DNA of 64,000 bases from a virus: UHGV virus genome UHGV-1363143. The stretch is one strand, 5' to 3'. This document shows, piece by piece, positions 767 through 58,819 of this stretch (position 1 is the first letter of the stretch; the number at the start of each line of letters is the position of its first letter). The notes under the pieces are model-generated. The model saw only the letters and a list, made by a program, of their open reading frames with translations, did no database searches and had not been told where the DNA came from. The position numbers and the translations under genes were made by a program.

Positions 767-2585
<1,819 letters not shown>

Positions 2586-5154: not shown

Positions 5155-5532
5155 TTACACCGCCTTAAAAGGATCATCTTGTTTAATGTAAGATTTTCTT
5201 CCGAATTGTATGTCAGCAGCTTGATCTATTTTATTCATATATTCAACTGATAATGAGCCTATTTTTTCTCTTAACTGAGTCTTATTAATAGTAGTAATTT
5301 GTTCTAATAGAGCCATAGAAGGTTCTTTTAAACCAAAGCCTTCAATTAATACATGCACACATAACTCTTTAAGCTCACTACTCAATGGAATAGCTTGAAG
5401 AACTGGTGCGAATATGTTATTTGTGTTATTTGAATAAATTATTACTGGTCTAACGCCAATTTGCTGATTCCCTATTCCATACAATTCAGCATAGAAAATA
5501 TCTCCTCTTCTTATTTTTGGTCCTCTCCCCAT
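5155..5532 (-). CDS. mazF: MazF/PemK (NdoA)-family endoribonuclease toxin
   Basis: RGDIFYAELYGIGNQQIGVRPVIIYSNNTNN...LLEQITTINKTQL aligns along its length with Bacillus NdoA/MazF ([29 protein letters not shown]...). Confidence 0.7.
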   Translation of the reverse strand: MGRGPKIRRGDIFYAELYGIGNQQIGVRPVIIYSNNTNNIFAPVLQAIPLSSELKELCVHVLIEGFGLKEPSMALLEQITTINKTQLREKIGSLSVEYMNKIDQAADIQFGRKSYIKQDDPFKAV

Positions 5533-45409: not shown

Positions 45410-46024
45410 CTAGATAATCTCATCAATCAATCCCATTTCTAATGCCCTTTCAGGTGAAAGAAAGTTATCTCTCTCACATTCATTCCACATTGTAGCAGGA
45501 TCTGTCTTTCCATTAGTCGAATTGGCCATCATCTCAGTAAGCTTTTTCTTCATTTCCATAATTCTAGCAGCATGAATTTGAATATCTGTAGCTTGTCCTT
45601 GATAGCCACCTAATGGTTGATGAATCATAACTTCTGAATTAGAAGTACAATATCTATGTCCTGGTTCTCCTTGAGATAATAAAAATGCACCCATAGATGC
45701 TGCCATTCCCATACACACTGTATGAACTGGTGATTTAACTTTATTCATTGCATCAAGTATTGCCATTCCATCTGTAATAGATCCTCCTGGACTATTAATA
45801 TACATAGTTATTGGATCATTACTTTCTGAATCTAGGAATAAAAGCTGTGCTTGAATTAACACAGCCATTCTAGATTCTACTTGTCCAGTAAGCATAATTA
45901 CCCTATCCTTTAATAGCCTAGAGAATATGTCCATTGATCTTTCTACTCTTCCATCTTGTTCTATAACCATTGGAACTGTTAATGATCCTATTGGTTGTAA
46001 TGTTGTACCATAAAAATTATTCAT
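45410..46024 (-). CDS. clpP: ClpP protease proteolytic subunit
   Basis: [16 protein letters not shown], the catalytic Ser in GMAASMGA, and the MIHQP motif. Confidence 0.9.
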
Positions 46025-47902: not shown

Positions 47903-48568
47903 CTATTCTAAAGTCCAAGTACCTTTAAATAATGCCATAATAACAATGATTTCTGGTCTTATTCCTGGTGACGCTTCAGTTATAGCGAATCCTGGTACAC
48001 CATCTTTAGAAGTAATGTAACCTGTTGCTTCTGTACCAAACATATCTACTGTAAAGAAAACCTTATTACCTGCGATCGCCATTTCTAATGCTTTTGGACC
48101 ATTTATTGTTTCAGATTTCTTTTTCTTAAACTCTAAATTTACAAAATGAGAATCTATTGAAGCTGGGAATACAGCATTTTCTGTTACTATAAGTAAAGTC
48201 TTACTGTCGATGTCATATCTAATTACATCTCCTTCTTCACTGATAAAAGTTCCTCTATAACCATTATCAAATTCATCTACCATTTCAATAAAATTATAAG
48301 TTAACTCTGATTCATCTACTTTTTCTTTTATATCCTTTAAAATCATTTTCATGAACTCTGGGAATGAAGATTCTCTGTTTGATTCAACTTCTTCTTTCAT
48401 TGATTCACTTATTCCATCACAGAATTCTTTCTTATCACAGTTATCACAATCACATTCATGTTCTTCTCTATTTGTTTCCTCAGCTGTAATAGCTCCTAGT
48501 ATCATTTTTATTGCATCTTCCCCTGATATCTCTCTCATTCTTACTTCACTCATTTTATATTTCCTCAC
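47903..48568 (-). CDS. hypothetical protein (221 aa)
   Basis: ORF with a Cys/Asp-rich N-terminal segment. Confidence 0.4.
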   Translation of the reverse strand: MRKYKMSEVRMREISGEDAIKMILGAITAEETNREEHECDCDNCDKKEFCDGISESMKEEVESNRESSFPEFMKMILKDIKEKVDESELTYNFIEMVDEFDNGYRGTFISEEGDVIRYDIDSKTLLIVTENAVFPASIDSHFVNLEFKKKKSETINGPKALEMAIAGNKVFFTVDMFGTEATGYITSKDGVPGFAITEASPGIRPEIIVIMALFKGTWTLE

Positions 48569-49043
48569 TTTCGCTTTTTCTCTTTATATCCTTGTCTATC
48601 ATCAAACATCCAAATAAATGATCTAATTCATGTTGAAATACTACTGCTTCTAGGTCTTTAAGTAGTTTCTTTACTTTTTGTCCATTTTCATTAATGTACG
48701 CTACTTTTAACATCTTGTATCTTCTTGTAAGACTTTTAGTCTCTGGTATGGATAAACAAGATTCACTAAAGAAACCTATTTTATTTGGATACATCTTAAT
48801 GATTTCTGGATTTATGCAAACAGTAATCTCTTCTATATTTCTTGGATTAACCATTGCAAAAGCCATCTTATTTACTCCAATTTGTGGAGCTGCTATTCCA
48901 AGACTTGTATTTCCTTCACCGAAATGAGCTTTTAATGAAGTAATCAATTCTTGTTCTTTTTCTACAGATTCAATAGGTTCAGAAATTTTTCTTAACACCT
49001 TTAAATCTTCTTCTGATTCAATAGTTAGTATTCTATTATTCAT
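48555..49043 (-). CDS. def: peptide deformylase
   Basis: The GIAAPQIG, ESCLSIPE and QHELDHLFG motifs. Confidence 0.8.
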   Translation of the reverse strand: MNNRILTIESEEDLKVLRKISEPIESVEKEQELITSLKAHFGEGNTSLGIAAPQIGVNKMAFAMVNPRNIEEITVCINPEIIKMYPNKIGFFSESCLSIPETKSLTRRYKMLKVAYINENGQKVKKLLKDLEAVVFQHELDHLFGCLMIDKDIKRKSESEEI

Positions 49044-50074: not shown

Positions 50075-50149
50075 TGGCGGAACTAGTAGGATTCGAACCT
50101 ACAACCTATCGGTTAACAGCCGAGTGCTCCACCTTTGAGCTGTAGTTCC
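50075..50149 (-). tRNA. tRNA-Asn (GUU)
   Basis: Manual cloverleaf with acceptor ggaacta/tagttcc, T-loop GGTTCGAATCC, anticodon loop cuGUUaa, and CCA encoded. Confidence 0.7.
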
Positions 50150-50934
50150 ATAATTCCAGCGTCCGTATGGACCTGGAGATCTCCTTCTATCTTAGATAGA
50201 TGAGCTAATGTAAGCACCACATTTTATAATCCCTTGCATGGATTGGGCAGGCACCATTATTTTTACATGCATGGTTGCATTGACCTAGCTTACTTTTTGT
50301 TCTTTCGGTCTTATTGATTATTACTATCCCACTCGTGAATAGCATATTTGTTTGAAACAATCGCCTGCACAATGCAAGCCCCAGAAAGAGTTTATCTTTC
50401 AAAATTAATGCAAGGTGGGGTGGCGTATCCCACATCTCTAACCATAACAATATATGTAGTATAGACTGCCTGTTTCTACTTCTTGCATTTTTATATCTAA
50501 TTGCTTACTTGAAAAACACGAGCTAATTACATTAGCTACTAAAACTCATAAGCATAAATATACCTTCTTATAAGAGTTCCTAATCTATGTCTAAATAAGA
50601 AGTATATTAGTTTCATAAGGATATAGATTAGGTTTCACCTTACTTTTTATTATTGCTTGAAAAAACCCTAAAAATTACTAAGCAATATATATATTCTTCT
50701 CACTTCCGAAACCAGCACTCCATGTCCTTCGAATATATAGTTTTTTTGTTTCGCTGATCTGGTCCTCTATGCAAAACTTTAAAGGGAAATTTGCTTACCG
50801 CCACAGTTCCTTCCTGCTCGTCCATAAGCTATTAAGTAGATAAATTACTCCTACTTAACTAGTGCGTCTCCAGTGAGCATAGTAAATCAGGCCAATCAAA
50901 TCAGCTAAATACCAGAGGCTTGAGAGGTTCTATT

Positions 50935-51008
50935 TGGAGCTCCTACTCAGAATCGAACTGAGAACAGAAGATTACAAGTCTACCGTTTTACCTTTAAACT
51001 ATAGGAGC
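50935..51008 (-). tRNA. tRNA-Thr (UGU)
   Basis: Cloverleaf with acceptor gctccta/taggagc, anticodon loop cuUGUaa, and CCA encoded. Confidence 0.6.
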
Positions 51009-51164
51009 ATATAATACTTTCGGTGTGCTACAGAAATCTAAGTTTCTGTTAATAGGCAAGGCTGTCTATATCAGGTATTCAGTAATTATGTACACTTTTA
51101 ACTGAACCATACTATATATCCCTACACGCTACTCTTAACTATAAGAACACCGAAAATATTATAA

Positions 51165-51239
51165 TGGTACTCCATGGGGGACTCGAACCCCCGATACACG
51201 ATAGAAAGTCGTGTGGCTTAACCACTTGCCGAATGGAGC
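51165..51239 (-). tRNA. tRNA-Glu (UUC), probable
   Basis: Cloverleaf with T-arm ggggg/ccccc and anticodon stem cacga/tcgtg; the loop cuUUCua has an unusual U37. Confidence 0.5.
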
Positions 51240-51318
51240 ATAATTTGTGCTATCTCTTTTAGCTTGTACTTCGCCAAGGATGATAGCTATCCTTATCTGT
51301 ACAAATTACAGATTTCTC

Positions 51319-51390
51319 TGGTGCAGATTGCTGGAATCGAACCAACCCTTATAATCTTATAGAAAACGCTCTACCTTGAGCTAATCTGCA
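51319..51390 (-). tRNA. tRNA-like element with intact acceptor, D and T arms but no foldable anticodon stem (possible pseudo-tRNA)
   Basis: gcagatt...ggttcgattccagcaatctgcacca carries the right length between the D and T arms, but the segment UUUUCUAUAAGAUUAUA cannot form a 5-bp stem. Confidence 0.3.
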
Positions 51391-52418
51391 TATTATATTT
51401 CCAGAGCTTTCAGATCCTATCTCTGGTACTCAACTTTTGCAGCATTATTGATTCTCTGCTTATCCACATTCTCTTGAATGTATTGAGTTATGCCTGCCTT
51501 GTTTAATGAGTGGCTTATCTCATCTAATAGTACACTACTCTACACCATTGATTATATCAACCTTGCGGGCTGTTCAGGCTGCTACCCCTTATACGCTCTC
51601 CGATATAGAACAATCAAGCTTTTGCGAAGCTATCATGCGCTTCATTCACTTTTCAGTGTGAAGCATTAAGACACTTTCATGCACTACGAGGATGAACTTT
51701 CGCTTTTATATAGAATTAATATCTGTAAATTCTTAAATATTGTTTTATTTCCCAAAACATATAGCTTAAATTCATCATTCATTAAATTTTCAAACTGTAG
51801 ATGTGTCATCCTATCAGCTCGCTTCCCTTTTGAGGAAGTAAATACTGGACACCTACATAGCTTTCACTCAACTAAGTTACTAACTGGTAATAAATCATAC
51901 TCTAGGATACCTCCGTCTCTCAACTTCTAAGGTCCTATTTCATTTTTATTACTGGCCAATGCTCTTGCCTGTTAAACTCGAACTACTAACCTTCTGCTAT
52001 AAATAGTTTATTTCATTAGTTTTGGTGTGTGCTATCTGATTACCAGTCAGAAACTCCTTCAGAGAGTATATCCCCTACTTTCTTACCAGCGTTGCCCATA
52101 AGCGAGCTTTCGCACCTAACTTATAAAACCTTATCCAATAATCGTCTTTATCTCTTCCGCCTACTGAATAACATTTAAATTTATGCAGATTGCTTGAATT
52201 AACCTAATATTTCAAGGCGAGAATTTGTTAAATTCCCTTTACGCACATCACTGTACGCTATTCATGTCAAGCCATGTTTACTTATTTTTTTTATAGAACC
52301 TAGTACAGATTCTTGTATGTAATTCCTACCTCTATTACATACTAGGCTCTTGCCTACCGATGTTTTCCTTATTTAAAACTAAGTACTGAAAAGAAAACTC
52401 ATAACCAAAAATCGTACT

Positions 52419-52494
52419 TGGTGAAGGTAGAAGGGTTTGAACCTTCGGCCCCAGCATTAAAAGTGCTATGCTCTACCAACTGAGCTATACCTTC
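52419..52494 (-). tRNA. tRNA-Lys (UUU)
   Basis: Cloverleaf with D-arm gctcagttggtagagc, anticodon loop cuUUUaa, and CCA encoded. Confidence 0.75.
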
Positions 52495-52501
52495 ATATTA
52501 T

Positions 52502-52578
52502 TGGTAGTGGATATAAGAGTCGAACTTATCACCTTCTGCGTATCAGGCAGATGCTCTAACCAAATGAGCTAATCCACT
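52502..52578 (-). tRNA. tRNA-Ile (GAU)
   Basis: Cloverleaf with anticodon stem tctgc/gcaga and loop cuGAUac. Confidence 0.75.
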
Positions 52579-52584
52579 ATATTA

Positions 52585-52669
52585 TGGTGGGAACTGATGG
52601 AGTCGAACCACCCGAGCTAAAGCAACAGATTTACAGTCTGCCCCGCTACCATCTACGGTATAAATTCCC
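52585..52669 (-). tRNA. tRNA-Tyr (GUA), type II (long variable arm)
   Basis: 85 nt, anticodon loop cuGUAaa, long variable arm. Confidence 0.65.
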
Positions 52670-52763
52670 GTATTGACATTGTTAATTGGCTAAATTATTA
52701 TAATTGTAAATGTACTATACTTACAAAGAACTAGATCAATCTTCGGATTGGTCTTTTTCTTAT

Positions 52764-52850
52764 TGGCAGGGGCTGTAGGATTCGAACCTACGTGGTGTTG
52801 TGCACAATGGTTTTGGAGACCACCGCCCTCGACCTCTAGGCAAAACCCCT
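52764..52850 (-). tRNA. tRNA with Trp anticodon (CCA) and an atypical 15-nt variable arm
   Basis: Acceptor and anticodon arm (gguggu-CUCCAaa-accau) resemble bacterial tRNA-Trp, but the gene is 87 nt with the insert ugugcacaacaccac before the T-arm. Confidence 0.5.
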
Positions 52851-52985
52851 GTAAATCTCCCGATTAGTTTAAAGACATTTATGGGACTGGTCATTAGAGA
52901 GGTCTTATGTATAAATTAAAACGTTATGCATAAATATATTATGTTAACATCTATAAAAAGACTACTGATTTGAAAAACTTTTTTA

Positions 52986-53072
52986 TGGCGGAGAGTCTGG
53001 GACTCGAACCCAGAAGCCATTACTGACCAACAGTTTTCAAGACTGTCTGACTACCAATTATCACAACTCTCC
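52986..53072 (-). tRNA. tRNA-Ser (UGA)
   Basis: 87 nt with acceptor ggagagt/actctcc, anticodon stem acagt/actgt, loop cuUGAaa and a long variable arm. Confidence 0.7.
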
Positions 53073-53090
53073 ATGTTTATAGGAGAAAAC

Positions 53091-53170
53091 GAAATAGGTG
53101 ATAGGAATTGAACCTACACTTACTGCCATCCCTATCTCTAGCTGGCCTTGCTTCATTCTCCTGTTGCAAC
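53091..53170 (-). tRNA. tRNA-like remnant (T-arm-like gtagg-ttcaatt-cctat only)
   Basis: An 80-nt spacer between tRNA-Gln and tRNA-Ser contains a T-arm-like hairpin and a 7-bp aggagaa/ttctcct pairing, but no canonical cloverleaf. Confidence 0.25.
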
Positions 53171-53245
53171 TGGCGGAGGTGGAAGGGATTGAACCTTCGA
53201 ATGATGGAATCAAAATCCATTGCCTTACCACTTGGCGACACCTCT
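53171..53245 (-). tRNA. tRNA-Gln (UUG)
   Basis: D-arm gccaagtggtaaggc (Gln-like), anticodon loop uuUUGau, weak 1-72 pair, and G73. Confidence 0.65.
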
Positions 53246-53446
53246 ATATAAAATGGCAATTTTACCGTTTGCCAAACGTTCTATGGTTTATACAAAAACT
53301 CATATCGTAAAATTTAAACGGGCTTAAGTGCCCTAAATTCTGGCATTTCACCACGGGTATTTAGCAACCCAGGATTTTTATTATTGAATCTAATAAATTA
53401 AGATCCGTTCTAAGCACTGCAAAAAAATCTTAAAAAAATTTCGCTT

Positions 53447-53522
53447 TGGTCGGAGTTACAGGACTCGAACCTGTGATCTCATGGTCCCAAACCATGCACC
53501 TTACCATCTAGGCCAAACTCCG
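53447..53522 (-). tRNA. tRNA-Pro (UGG)
   Basis: cggagtt acceptor, anticodon stem catgg/ccatg, loop uuUGGga. Confidence 0.75.
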
Positions 53523-53531
53523 ATATATAAA

Positions 53532-53623
53532 TGGCGGAGGACACAGGATTCGAACCTGCGGAGGAACTTTCGTCCCTCGAATGCTTAGCAAGCACCTGCC
53601 TTAAACCTCTCGGCCAATCCTCC
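53532..53623 (-). tRNA. tRNA-Ser (GCU)
   Basis: 92 nt with ggaggat acceptor, loop uuGCUaa and a long variable arm. Confidence 0.7.
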
Positions 53624-53713
53624 ATATTAATAGCTCATTTTGGTCAGTTGAGCTAAACTGTAGTCTATAAGACTAAAAAATGAACATTGGAATTTAATAT
53701 TGAATTGAATTAG

Positions 53714-53790
53714 TGGCGACTCACAAGGGGATCGAACCCTCGACCTCTGGCGTGACAGGCCAGCACTCTAACCATCTGAGCTAGTGAGCC
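53714..53790 (-). tRNA. tRNA-Asp (GUC)
   Basis: Anticodon stem ctggc/gccag with loop cuGUCac. Confidence 0.75.
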
Positions 53791-53796
53791 ATATTA

Positions 53797-53885
53797 TGGT
53801 GTCGTGAGAAGGATTCGAACCTCCAACCACCTGAGTCTTGTTAATGGAGCTCCCTCAGTGCGTATACCAATTCCGCCACCACGAC
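53797..53885 (-). tRNA. tRNA-Leu-like gene with an expanded 18-nt anticodon loop
   Basis: Leu-type D-arm gcggaattggtatacgc and good acceptor/T arms, but ctgag-[ggagctccattaacaaga]-ctcag replaces the 7-nt loop. Confidence 0.4.
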
Positions 53886-55988: not shown

Positions 55989-56748
55989 GTTAGGTCCTTT
56001 CTTTTATAGAGATTAGGAGTTGCTAGATGATAAAACTGTTTAAAGCTAATACATAAAACAATGACGAAACAGTTTATGCTATTTTATTACATAAAAAAAA
56101 GATTATAAAAAATATAATCTTAGTAATTCTGTGCTTTTCCCTTGTATTTCGAAAGAATCTTTTATTTTTTTTTATTCACAAGTAGTCTATTATTTTTTAG
56201 CAACATAATATAAAAACGTTAAGCGATTAACAGTACATATTATGGAGCATACACCAAAGATGAATGCAGTTGCCCTATTACTTAAACATGGGAACCTTGC
56301 AAAAGGAGTCTTGCGAAGACTATAAAGATTTCCTACCGAAAGGTAAGGATACAGAAAGCACAGCTGATGCAAAATAGTGCCTCTGGACAGTAAATGGCCA
56401 TTCCCCTAGCACATGGTCGTTCAGGTTGAGACGTGATGACGACGTAATGGTCAGGAGGGAGTTCTGGGTGCATAGATGCACGGGAACTATAAGCAATTAC
56501 ATGGACAGAACCAATGTAGCAAAAGCTTATAGGTGTTTAACACATAACTGCTAGGGTGTAAGATAGTGATACGATTGACATATACGAAGCACAGATTATA
56601 GTTATTCTTTATTGATTGTAAAATTATATAGTATTTTGTATTTTTTTACAATTGGTAAGGAAATAACTATATCCGTTCCACTCCGAGCATGCCGAAGTAC
56701 AGGTGCTTTTCGCTTCTCTATACAAAACGTTCATAATTTTAAACGCTC

Positions 56749-56943
56749 CTACTCATCGACTGTATCATACGCCTTGGTTCTCTCCCAACCGTACTCTTTC
56801 CCACTAACGACTTCTAGTTTTTCTGTTTCAGCTATCTCAAGTATAGAGTTGCTGATCCTTCTCATAATATCTTCTCTCTGAGATTCTGTCTTATCAGCAA
56901 AATCAATCTCAACAAGAAGCTGGTATATTGGTTGTTTTGCCAT
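56749..56943 (-). CDS. hypothetical protein (64 aa)
   Basis: ORF with an RBS. Confidence 0.35.
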   Translation of the reverse strand: MAKQPIYQLLVEIDFADKTESQREDIMRRISNSILEIAETEKLEVVSGKEYGWERTKAYDTVDE

Positions 56944-57814: not shown

Positions 57815-58819
57815 ATGTTAATGTCAAAGAATTCTAAGAAGTATGTTTTAGTACTTGACTTGGGTAAAGGTGTAGCGAAAGGTTTAGGCTGTGAAATCAC
57901 AGATAGTATACCTAATCCAGAATCATTAAAAAAATCTATGTTTGAAACAAAGAGTTATGATTTAAATAAAGGTTATACTGAATTACAAGGAAATTCTCAT
58001 AAAGTAGATTTCAATGGTAGCTCAGTAATTTTAGGTGAACAAGGCGTAGATCGTAGCTTTGAAACTAGTAAAACTACTCCACTTCATCAAATGTGTGCTT
58101 ACACATTAATTAGCCAATATCTTGAACCTGATACTAAGGATAATGAAATATATCTTGTTCTTGCTTGTCCTATAACAGTATTAAAGAGTGATAAAGCTAA
58201 GCAAGAATATAAAAACCTTATTAAGGGTGATGGACCTATATCAATAACTGTTAATGATAAATATTATGAATTTGAAATTAAAGATATCTTAATTAAGGCT
58301 GAAAGTTCAGGAGTATTATATTTAATGCCTGAAGAATTTAAAGATAAAAAAATTCTAGTGGTAGACTTTGGTGGTCTTAATATGACTAATACTATCTTTA
58401 CTAATGGAGTATGTGTTAATCCTGAAAATGATAGATTTGCTGAAGAATGGGGATCTGTTGAATTAATCAATAAAGTAAGTAAACACTTAACAGATTATTC
58501 TAAAGGTAATATTGTAGATTTCCAAACTTCTGAAGAAGCTTTAAATAGAGGTCACTTATTAGAATATGGAAAACCTGATTTAGCTTCTACTGAATATATA
58601 GAAAGAGCTAAACAAGAGTTTATAGATGACTCTCTTAAAAAATTAGCTAGACATAATGTAAGAACAAAGAACTTAGATAAAATAATCTATATTGGAGGAA
58701 CTAGTTCTTACTTAAAAGACCAAATAAAAGCGTTACCTAATGGTCAAATCACAGATAATCCTCAATGGTCTTCCGTAGAAGGCTTATTAAAAATCGCTAT
58801 TAAAAAATATATTAAATAA
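57815..58819 (+). CDS. actin-like segregation ATPase (ParM/StbA/Alp family)
   Basis: Three actin-fold phosphate/adenosine motifs spaced as in ParM: LVLDLGKG, ILVVDFGGLNMTNT and IIYIGGTSSYL. Confidence 0.55.
   Translation: MLMSKNSKKYVLVLDLGKGVAKGLGCEITDSIPNPESLKKSMFETKSYDLNKGYTELQGNSHKVDFNGSSVILGEQGVDRSFETSKTTPLHQMCAYTLISQYLEPDTKDNEIYLVLACPITVLKSDKAKQEYKNLIKGDGPISITVNDKYYEFEIKDILIKAESSGVLYLMPEEFKDKKILVVDFGGLNMTNTIFTNGVCVNPENDRFAEEWGSVELINKVSKHLTDYSKGNIVDFQTSEEALNRGHLLEYGKPDLASTEYIERAKQEFIDDSLKKLARHNVRTKNLDKIIYIGGTSSYLKDQIKALPNGQITDNPQWSSVEGLLKIAIKKYIK

Follow-up and report, generated by a model that had tools for sequence, protein, structure and literature searches.

Structure of the tRNA-Trp gene

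The DNA analyzed here is a stretch of 64,000 nucleotides (the window) from the virus genome UHGV-1363143, the source of which is a human-gut jumbo-type phage, and the gene under study encodes a tRNA-Trp with a variable arm of the class II kind. ARAGORN called a tRNA-Trp, with the anticodon cca at position 35, at exactly 52764 to 52850 on the minus strand. The Rfam model RF00005 covered 52767 to 52850 with a score of 53.4 bits (gathering score, 29), with model positions 1 to 71 complete and zero non-canonical pairs flagged. An initial annotation of the window, made from the letters alone, had placed a tRNA with a Trp anticodon at these positions; both programs bore this out and added the strand, which had been left unstated. 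As a whole, the locus is a genuine tRNA, far beyond what is expected by chance. The 5' part of the RNA reads AGGGGUU-UU-GCCU-AGAGGUCGA-GGGC-G-GUGGU-CUCCAAA-ACCAU-UGUGCACAACACCAC and is followed by the T arm and 3' end, GUAGG-UUCGAAU-CCUAC-AGCCCCU-G-CCA, for a total of 87 nt including the encoded CCA. The gene and its parts are as follows.

52764 to 52850, minus strand: whole tRNA-Trp(CCA) gene, 87 nt, class-II-like, CCA encoded (ARAGORN; Rfam, 53.4 bits; family covariance model R1, described below, 83.4 bits)
52844 to 52850, minus strand: acceptor stem 5' strand, AGGGGUU (nt 1 to 7), pairing with AGCCCCU
52825 to 52841, minus strand: D arm, GCCU/AGAGGUCGA/GGGC, with three Watson-Crick pairs plus U13-G22 and a loop containing A14, G15, G18, G19, and A21 (Rfam alignment)
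52807 to 52823, minus strand: anticodon arm, GUGGU CUCCAAA ACCAU, with the anticodon CCA at 52814 to 52816 (ARAGORN; Rfam alignment)
52792 to 52806, minus strand: variable region, 15 nt, U-GUG-CACAA-CAC-CAC (sequence; homologous arm in the related loci L253, L256, and L021)
52775 to 52791, minus strand: T arm, GUAGG UUCGAAU CCUAC (Rfam and R1 alignments)
52768 to 52774, minus strand: acceptor stem 3' strand, AGCCCCU (nt 66 to 72) (sequence; Rfam alignment)
52767, minus strand: discriminator G73 (sequence)
52764 to 52766, minus strand: encoded 3' CCA (sequence)

The acceptor/T branch was 7/5, the D stem had four pairs, the anticodon stem had the normal 5 bp, and the anticodon loop, CUCCAAA, was an uninterrupted 7-mer. 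Read from the sequence, the acceptor pairs were A1-U72, G2-C71, G3-C70, G4-C69, G5-C68, U6-G67, and U7-A66, and the core nucleotides were all in place (U8, A14, G15/C48, G18G19, A21, and the T loop UUCGAAU). The variable region consisted of 1 unpaired nt, a 3-bp stem, a 5-nt loop, and 3 unpaired nt ending in C48. The variable loop of tRNA-Trp, a class I tRNA, is normally 4 to 5 nt long, and long variable arms are by textbook accounts restricted to the Leu, Ser, bacterial Tyr, and Sec tRNAs. With 15 nt and a 3-bp stem, the variable region of the window tRNA falls outside the class I architecture and within that of class II (at least 10 nt, with a stem-loop). The initial annotation had proposed that a variable arm of class II type is joined to an acceptor stem, anticodon loop, and discriminator of Trp type; this was confirmed by the sequence and the alignments, and the 15-nt variable region quoted there was exact, Rfam placing it as a 12-nt insertion. 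The proposed enlargement of the D loop stood only in part: Rfam placed a 2-nt insertion ("cg") in it, and the loop, at 9 nt in total, was only slightly enlarged. Because the extra nucleotides mapped to the variable region and not to the anticodon loop in full-length covariance alignments (Rfam and the family model), the competing possibility of an intron or a mis-called boundary was ruled out.

A family of long-arm tRNA-Trp genes in phages

Viral contigs were scanned with the pattern CTCCAAA-N18-30-GGTTCRAWTCC, the gap of which forces a long variable region. At least 119 loci were obtained, and 78 of the 119 listed were Trp(CCA) tRNAs of 80 to 92 nt according to ARAGORN. As a cellular control, the same pattern was run over 185,579 prokaryotic species genomes, one for each species, and gave at least 120 loci; among the 120 matches listed, approximately 4 were such Trp tRNAs, 3 of them in small multi-tRNA clusters and a fourth Ser-like. 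Frequency was estimated from a neutral sample in which phage tRNA clusters were picked with tRNA-Arg(UCU) as the anchor (120 loci, 1.03 Mb, 500 tRNAs); of its 12 parsable tRNA-Trp genes, 1 had a long variable region. A narrower scan for the D-arm type of the window gene found members on jumbo-phage contigs of 122 to 519 kb and on 18 metagenome contigs. The nearest relatives of the window tRNA, L253, L256 (human gut), and L021, were 78 to 80% identical to it, and their variable regions followed the form U-GUGC-GNRA-GCAC-CAC with the loops GCAA, GCGA, and GUAA. Aligned with these, the arm of the window tRNA looks like that of its relatives minus one nucleotide. These results demonstrate that the window tRNA belongs to a large, phage-enriched tRNA-Trp family.

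Several other features of these loci were recorded. A 90-nt tRNA in a Fimbriimonadales metagenome-assembled genome (L188:6461-6550) had a CCA anticodon, the acceptor stem GGAAGGU/ACCUUCC, and U73 and is thus Ser-like rather than Trp-like. The T stems of L021, L253, and L256 apparently have a bulged A (GUGGG / CCCA-A-C), which leads to a one-nucleotide shift of the acceptor register in alignments. Long Trp tRNAs shared arrays with amber-suppressor tRNAs (CUA; "Pyl" in ARAGORN) at L021, L256, L121, and L125, which suggests that some of the relatives are TAG-recoded phages; in the window phage itself, TAG serves as a stop. Normal-length Trp tRNAs with the loop UUCCAAC instead of CUCCAAA were found at L007, L079, L103, L125, and L316, most of them beside a long copy, and in this loop phage tRNA-Trp may diverge from that of the host in a second way. 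The canonical anticodon loop was kept at two other two-copy loci (L095 and L096).

BLAST searches of cultured phages with two other family members matched a single kind of Trp gene, present in five Brevundimonas phages; its tRNA is 82 nt long and has a variable loop of 8 nt. The remaining matches carried tRNA-Lys or tRNA-Ser annotations, among them a "tRNA-Lys" of 87 nt from Caulobacter jumbo phages. Examples are the tRNA-Trp of Brevundimonas phage Kabachok and the "tRNA-Lys" of Caulobacter phage CcrBL9. Two of the matched genes were read in detail, and neither was a true family member. The CcrBL9 gene (L272:1496-1582; MH588546.1 81826-81912), 87 nt long and annotated as tRNA-Lys(CTT), combines a variable arm and a D arm like that of Ser with G1-C72 and U73, while the phage tRNA-Lys genes in these loci have A73; these elements make it a candidate for a missense tRNA, charged with Ser, of a cultured jumbo phage.

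Covariation in the variable arm

Thirty-four sequences were aligned with the cloverleaf and a variable helix imposed. In this alignment, 91.2% of the cells were paired, compared to 66.8% in shuffles, and sliding the partners lowered pairing to 36 to 50%. The covariation score was 0.686 versus 0.204, and 0 of 500 shuffles scored as high. In the first three pairs of the variable helix, 17, 13, and 17 sequences, respectively, were altered on both sides, with 4 to 5 pair types. The anticodon stem had 99.4% of its cells paired and both-sided changes in 4 of its 5 pairs. Over the 65 unique family members, the best variable-stem lengths summed to 246, compared to 181.5 ± 5.4 in shuffles, and a GNRA motif was present in 43 of the 65. 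The covariation demonstrates that the variable arm is under selection in the family. In addition, 30 members were used to build a covariance model (R1), to the exclusion of the window tRNA and the three relatives nearest to it. The window tRNA scored 83.4 bits (E = 4e-23) and was the top match in the window, ahead of two tRNA-Ser genes (54.1 and 44.9 bits) and a tRNA-Leu gene (24.8 bits).

Amino acid identity elements

Amino acid identity was judged by tabulating identity elements and by the home-built family model. Bacterial Trp identity consists of the CCA anticodon, G73, A1-U72, and G5-C68, and in Bacillus subtilis, G2-C71, G3-C70, and G4-C69 are further strong determinants (PMC9976931). 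G73 is the major Trp determinant in bacteria (PMC9976931; PMC5370408) and a reported antideterminant of both LeuRS and TyrRS, as C2-G71 is of SerRS (PMC9976931). The window tRNA carries every one of the listed Trp elements (C34, C35, A36, G73, A1-U72, G2-C71, G3-C70, G4-C69, and G5-C68). The corresponding positions in the long Trp tRNAs and in the class II tRNAs of the same phage loci were as follows.

Long Trp(CCA), phage loci (65 unique): G73 in 63; pair 1-72 A-U in 37 and G-U in 18; commonest pair 2-71 C-G, in 28
tRNA-Ser, same phage loci (45): G73 in 36; G1-C72 in 43; G2-C71 in 44; A3-U70 in 36
tRNA-Leu, same phage loci (43): A73 in 43; pair 1-72 G-C in 20 and G-U in 16; commonest pair 2-71 C-G, in 29
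tRNA-Tyr, same phage loci (23): A73 in 22; G1-C72 in 21; G2-C71 in 19

Compared to these groups, the window tRNA departed from tRNA-Ser in its A1-U72 pair and 3-bp arm and shared with it only G2-C71 and G73. It lacked the A73 of tRNA-Leu and of bacterial tRNA-Tyr, along with the GUA anticodon and G1-C72 of the latter, and it had none of the features of tRNA-Sec or allo-tRNAs (an 8/5, 8/4, or 9/3 branch, a long D stem, and, for Sec, UCA; PMC5389517). The arm geometry of its subfamily, 1 unpaired 5' nt, 3 to 5 bp, and 3 unpaired 3' nt, was Tyr-like; phage tRNA-Ser arms mostly had 5 to 7 bp and 1 unpaired 3' nt.

Bacterial TrpRS is not known to have an S4-like domain that binds the arm, and the arm is for this reason probably not an identity element in the window tRNA. 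Bacterial TyrRS does carry such a domain (PMC5370408). In the crystal structure of human TrpRS with tRNA-Trp, both D loop and variable region are solvent exposed and have no protein contact, and the tRNA is bound as in TyrRS (PMC1538984).

A probable working tRNA-Trp and the alternatives to it

Taken together, the identity marks, the Tyr-like arm, and the exposed variable region in the TrpRS structure favor the view that the window gene is probably a working phage tRNA-Trp that reads UGG, an ordinary Trp adaptor built on a class-II-like scaffold. The host TrpRS would charge it with Trp, since all of the elements that a bacterial TrpRS reads are there. The arm would be tolerated by TrpRS, EF-Tu, and the ribosome, as it is in bacterial tRNA-Tyr, TrpRS and TyrRS being of the same subclass. 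The charged tRNA would then be used in translation at UGG, which accounts for 108 of 16,748 codons in the phage.

Several points weigh against this view. The family scan demanded CTCCAAA and a consensus T loop, and the conservation of both is therefore by construction. The Trp determinants used are those of Escherichia coli and B. subtilis and may not be those of the host. G2-C71, C11-G24, G73, and the variable arm of the window copy are all used by SerRS as well, so that some serylation of the window tRNA is conceivable. The arm of the window copy is weaker than those of its relatives, an apparent 1-nt deletion leaving 3 bp (GUG/CAC, loop CACAA), and 21% of 15-nt shuffles equal this hairpin (P = 0.21). 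Finally, the sequence permits another helix, GUGGU/ACCAC, between the 5' strand of the anticodon stem and ACCAC, which is the 3' half of the arm. This helix was rejected as the native fold: it would do away with the variable region and create a loop of 22 nt, and the complementarity is missing in the relatives. The single-sequence folding energy was unremarkable (z = −0.65), with a minimum-energy fold that only extends the anticodon stem. The hairpin of the window copy is nonetheless credible because its relatives carry a covarying arm.

Among the alternatives, it is unlikely that the tRNA has a dual or switched identity, in which SerRS, which is blind to the anticodon, would read the arm and G73, and UGG would partly be translated as Ser, as deliberate or tolerated mistranslation. 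Besides the SerRS-compatible elements listed above, the window tRNA has a Ser-like D arm, and there are precedents in the nematode nev-tRNAs, class II tRNAs with Gly or Ile anticodons that are charged with Leu (PMC3333845), and in allo-tRNAs with non-Ser anticodons (PMC5389517). However, the first pair here is A1-U72, whereas G1-C72 is "absolutely conserved" in bacterial tRNA-Ser (PMC9976931) and nearly so in the phage tRNA-Ser genes tabulated above. Family-wide, U72 was present in 57 of 65 members, and the commonest 2-71 pair, C-G, is the known SerRS antideterminant. The 3-bp arm with 3 unpaired 3' nt is Tyr-like and not of the form most frequent in phage tRNA-Ser, and there would be no reason for a Trp-specific acceptor set to persist if SerRS charged the tRNA. 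The suggestion in the initial annotation of a mischarging device thus found little favor, since the full bacterial Trp set is kept across the family and the marks of Ser, Leu, and Tyr are missing.

It is very unlikely that the gene is a decaying or non-translational copy, whether a pseudogene or an element that serves the array as a tRNA-like decoy or in processing. Compared to the hairpins of the relatives, the variable hairpin here is degraded, with 1 nt lost and 3 bp left; a clearly degenerate tRNA-like element lies at 51319 to 51389 in the same array; and the fold energy is, as given above, unremarkable. However, the four cloverleaf stems are intact, without a flagged mismatch, the tertiary nucleotides and the CCA end are complete, and the gene is both the top R1 match in the window and the sole Trp isoacceptor of the array.

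The use of TGA was examined in the window and across the family. The 63 coding-strand open reading frames (ORFs) of at least 100 aa in the window ended in TAA (45) or TAG (18) and never in TGA. TGA was frequent off frame, and no coding-strand ORF was interrupted by it. On overlapping contigs of the same phage (L264/L265), which lie partly beyond the left end of the window, the 30 gene calls checked had only TAA or TAG stops. A putative 89-aa ORF at 56612 to 56881 (plus strand) ends in TGA. In the loci of other phages with long Trp tRNAs, TGA was the stop in 67 of 333 cases overall and, at a G+C content below 0.35, in 17 of 138, compared to 8 of 57 in controls. When one anticodon letter was altered in the viral scan (UCA), there were 3 tRNAs, all Sec-like, among the 120 matches listed. 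A link between the arm and TGA recoding was rejected at the family level by these stop rates and the UCA scan. Phages that rely on non-TGA stops have been described for hosts that reassign TGA (PMC10746230), and the stop usage of the window phage resembles theirs. Because long-Trp loci elsewhere use TGA normally and the window has no in-frame TGA, TGA avoidance appears to be a trait separate from the long-arm tRNA-Trp.

The least probable alternative, and a highly improbable one, is recoding, also raised in the initial annotation: an unusual body that lets the CCA anticodon read UGA too, like that of the Hirsh suppressor or of a tRNA-Trp whose anticodon stem is 4 bp long, would fit a phage that has no TGA stops in ORFs of at least 100 aa and no UCA suppressor in its array, and body mutations that enable tRNA-Trp(CCA) to read UGA are known (PMC13092985), but with no such ORF in the 64 kb ending at or interrupted by TGA there is nothing to decode, long-Trp loci of other phages use TGA stops at ordinary rates, the 5-bp anticodon stem is normal, no UCA version of the family was among the matches listed, and phages that simply avoid TGA are already described (PMC10746230).

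Origin of the arm and its occurrence on other isoacceptors

When the window tRNA was compared segment by segment, the acceptor stem and discriminator were nearest those of Trp and Gln, the nearest non-Trp neighbors of the D arm were the class II D arms of Ser and Leu, and the T arm was uninformative. The description of the tRNA as chimeric in the initial annotation is therefore a fair one. The family had two architectures, one with a Ser-like D arm and a variable arm of 1 nt, stem, and 3 nt, which includes the window tRNA, and a second with the D arm GGUGCAGUUGGAGUGGCAC and a variable arm of stem and 1 nt. The simplest account of the origin, to judge by the segments, would be a class II body given a Trp acceptor end and anticodon, possibly more than once. 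Such reuse of a class II body with Trp ends or recombination between the tRNA genes of an array are the most likely origins.

Other class I isoacceptors in these loci also had arms. Variable regions of at least 10 nt were found in 39 of 445 (8.8%) of these tRNAs in long-Trp loci, compared to 9 of 349 (2.6%) in the neutral sample (Fisher p = 2.5e-4). In the viral loci L001 to L125, the arm-bearing isoacceptors included His, Lys, Asn, Cys, Arg, and Met, and those for His (C73), Lys (A73), Asn (G73), and Cys (U73) retained their own discriminators. Since arms are enriched on other isoacceptors in long-Trp loci, this points to a lineage-level pressure or mechanism behind them. Phage tRNAs escape host tRNA nucleases through changes in the anticodon loop (PMC10264068; context in PMC13056530). 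One possible but doubtful explanation is that the arm is an adaptive mark rather than a neutral relic, by which a reshaped elbow and core would evade host tRNA-targeting nucleases or toxins while TrpRS recognition is kept, or else a handle for a phage factor. If true, evasion of tRNases would have a structural route, second to anticodon-loop mutations.

The tRNA array and the phage

The tRNA-Trp gene lies in a tRNA array, the elements of which, together with selected genes elsewhere in the window, are as follows.

50075 to 53885, minus strand: tRNA array, 14 genes, among which the GOLLD and skipping-rope RNAs lie (ARAGORN; Rfam)
51412 to 51857, minus strand: GOLLD RNA, 171.8 bits (Rfam)
50407 to 50489, minus strand: skipping-rope RNA, 58.2 bits (Rfam)
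767 to 2368, minus strand: GroEL
5155 to 5532, minus strand: PemK-family toxin homologue
45410 to 46024, minus strand: ClpP
48555 to 49043, minus strand: peptide deformylase
57815 to 58819, plus strand: Alp7A-like actin

CCA was encoded by all 14 array tRNAs. Apart from its single tRNA-Trp, the array had an ordinary one-per-isoacceptor set, and ARAGORN called no suppressor tRNA, UCA included, in it. The degenerate tRNA-like element on the minus strand, directly 3' of GOLLD, was called "Tyr(ata)" by ARAGORN and scored 34.5 bits with Rfam; its acceptor, D, and T arms were good, and its anticodon arm was unalignable. Between tRNA-Trp and tRNA-Tyr (sites at 52733 to 52754, plus strand, and 52726 to 52697, minus strand) there was a promoter-like site on the minus strand, and going by these consensus matches, the array may be split there into two transcription units.

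The window was approximately 30% G+C, was densely coding, and encoded NrdD, both topoisomerase II subunits, helicases, a UvsX-like recombinase, and a lysin with SH3 and glucosaminidase domains. Judging from this lysin and from the Firmicutes-like GroEL, the host is probably Gram-positive. The exact GroEL protein was present on 11 contigs, and the places shown included human-gut metagenome assemblies, ERZ914104 and ERZ1755708 among them. This look-up extended the phage sequence by approximately 9 kb, all of it further replication genes. Late genes were sought by exact-protein look-ups, in which one of the proteins had no record and a second was found only on 2-kb contigs. When the 4-kb array was compared by megablast to 50,697 cultured-phage records, it matched only unrelated tRNAs and thus no close cultured relative, and a blastn search of the same records with the 87-nt Trp tRNA gave no match. 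An exact 25-mer from the variable region had 0 matches in IMG/VR. The identical tRNA gene was found only on the ENA metagenome contig L255 (3.4 kb), which is from the same phage and was 99.94% identical over 3.15 kb.

Comparison with known systems

A literature search found no description of a tRNA-Trp with a variable arm or of arm-bearing class I isoacceptors in phages, within a coverage that was incomplete and had many subscription papers outside it. The long-arm phage tRNA-Trp family is apparently undescribed. Cultured-phage records label long class I tRNAs by isotype alone, with their peculiarity unnoticed, as for the 82-nt tRNA-Trp of Kabachok and the 87-nt "tRNA-Lys" of CcrBL9. The tRNA described here has a complete Trp identity set and bears an arm that is, by the textbook, a feature of Leu, Ser, bacterial Tyr, and Sec tRNAs alone, and this design recurs among phages. 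Should these tRNAs be charged with Trp, the division between classes I and II would be more plastic than assumed, and there would be natural arm-bearing tRNAs accepted by class-I-type synthetases, which would be useful for tRNA engineering and orthogonal pairs. It would also become a testable question why phages select the arm, for instance, for anti-defense.

The window tRNA resembles the canonical bacterial tRNA-Trp of B. subtilis and E. coli in its CUCCAAA loop, G73, A1-U72, G2-C71 to G5-C68, 7/5 stems, and, presumably, synthetase. It differs from them in having a 15-nt hairpin variable region in place of 4 to 5 nt and a class II D arm of the form GCC...GGC. With bacterial tRNA-Tyr, a class II tRNA charged by the class Ic paralogue TyrRS, it shares an arm of 1 unpaired nt, a stem of approximately 3 bp, a short loop, and 3 unpaired nt, a pattern also seen in the phage tRNA-Tyr genes of the surveyed loci. 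The TrpRS/TyrRS subclass binds tRNA across the dimer from the major-groove side (PMC1538984). Unlike bacterial tRNA-Tyr, however, the window tRNA lacks A73, G1-C72, and GUA. Bacterial tRNA-Ser also has a variable arm, G73, and G2-C71, and its D arm is similar, but the window tRNA has A1-U72, a shorter arm, another number of unpaired 3' nucleotides, and a Trp anticodon and acceptor set that is conserved in its family.

Irregular pairings of body and anticodon have been described elsewhere. The nematode nev-tRNAs (PMC3333845) combine a class II body with an anticodon other than those for Leu, Ser, and Tyr, as do eukaryotic non-canonical variable-arm tRNAs (Hamashima 2016, as cited in PMC5389517). 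The nev-tRNAs are eukaryotic nuclear genes that keep Leu identity and are mischarged with Leu, whereas the acceptor identity of the phage tRNA agrees with its Trp anticodon. The allo-tRNAs and (8/4) tRNA-Ser and tRNA-His of bacteria and phages (PMC5389517) are likewise irregular metagenome tRNAs with long variable arms, some of them in phage clusters, but they have 8/4 or 9/3 branches, a Sec-like D arm, and Ser or His identity, in contrast to the 7/5 branch and Trp acceptor end found here. The type I tRNA-Leu of Streptomyces coelicolor (PMC6614811) is likewise an isoacceptor outside its textbook class that its cognate synthetase charges. It is a cellular example, tested by experiment, and runs in the reverse direction from the phage tRNA-Trp, a class II family having lost its arm.

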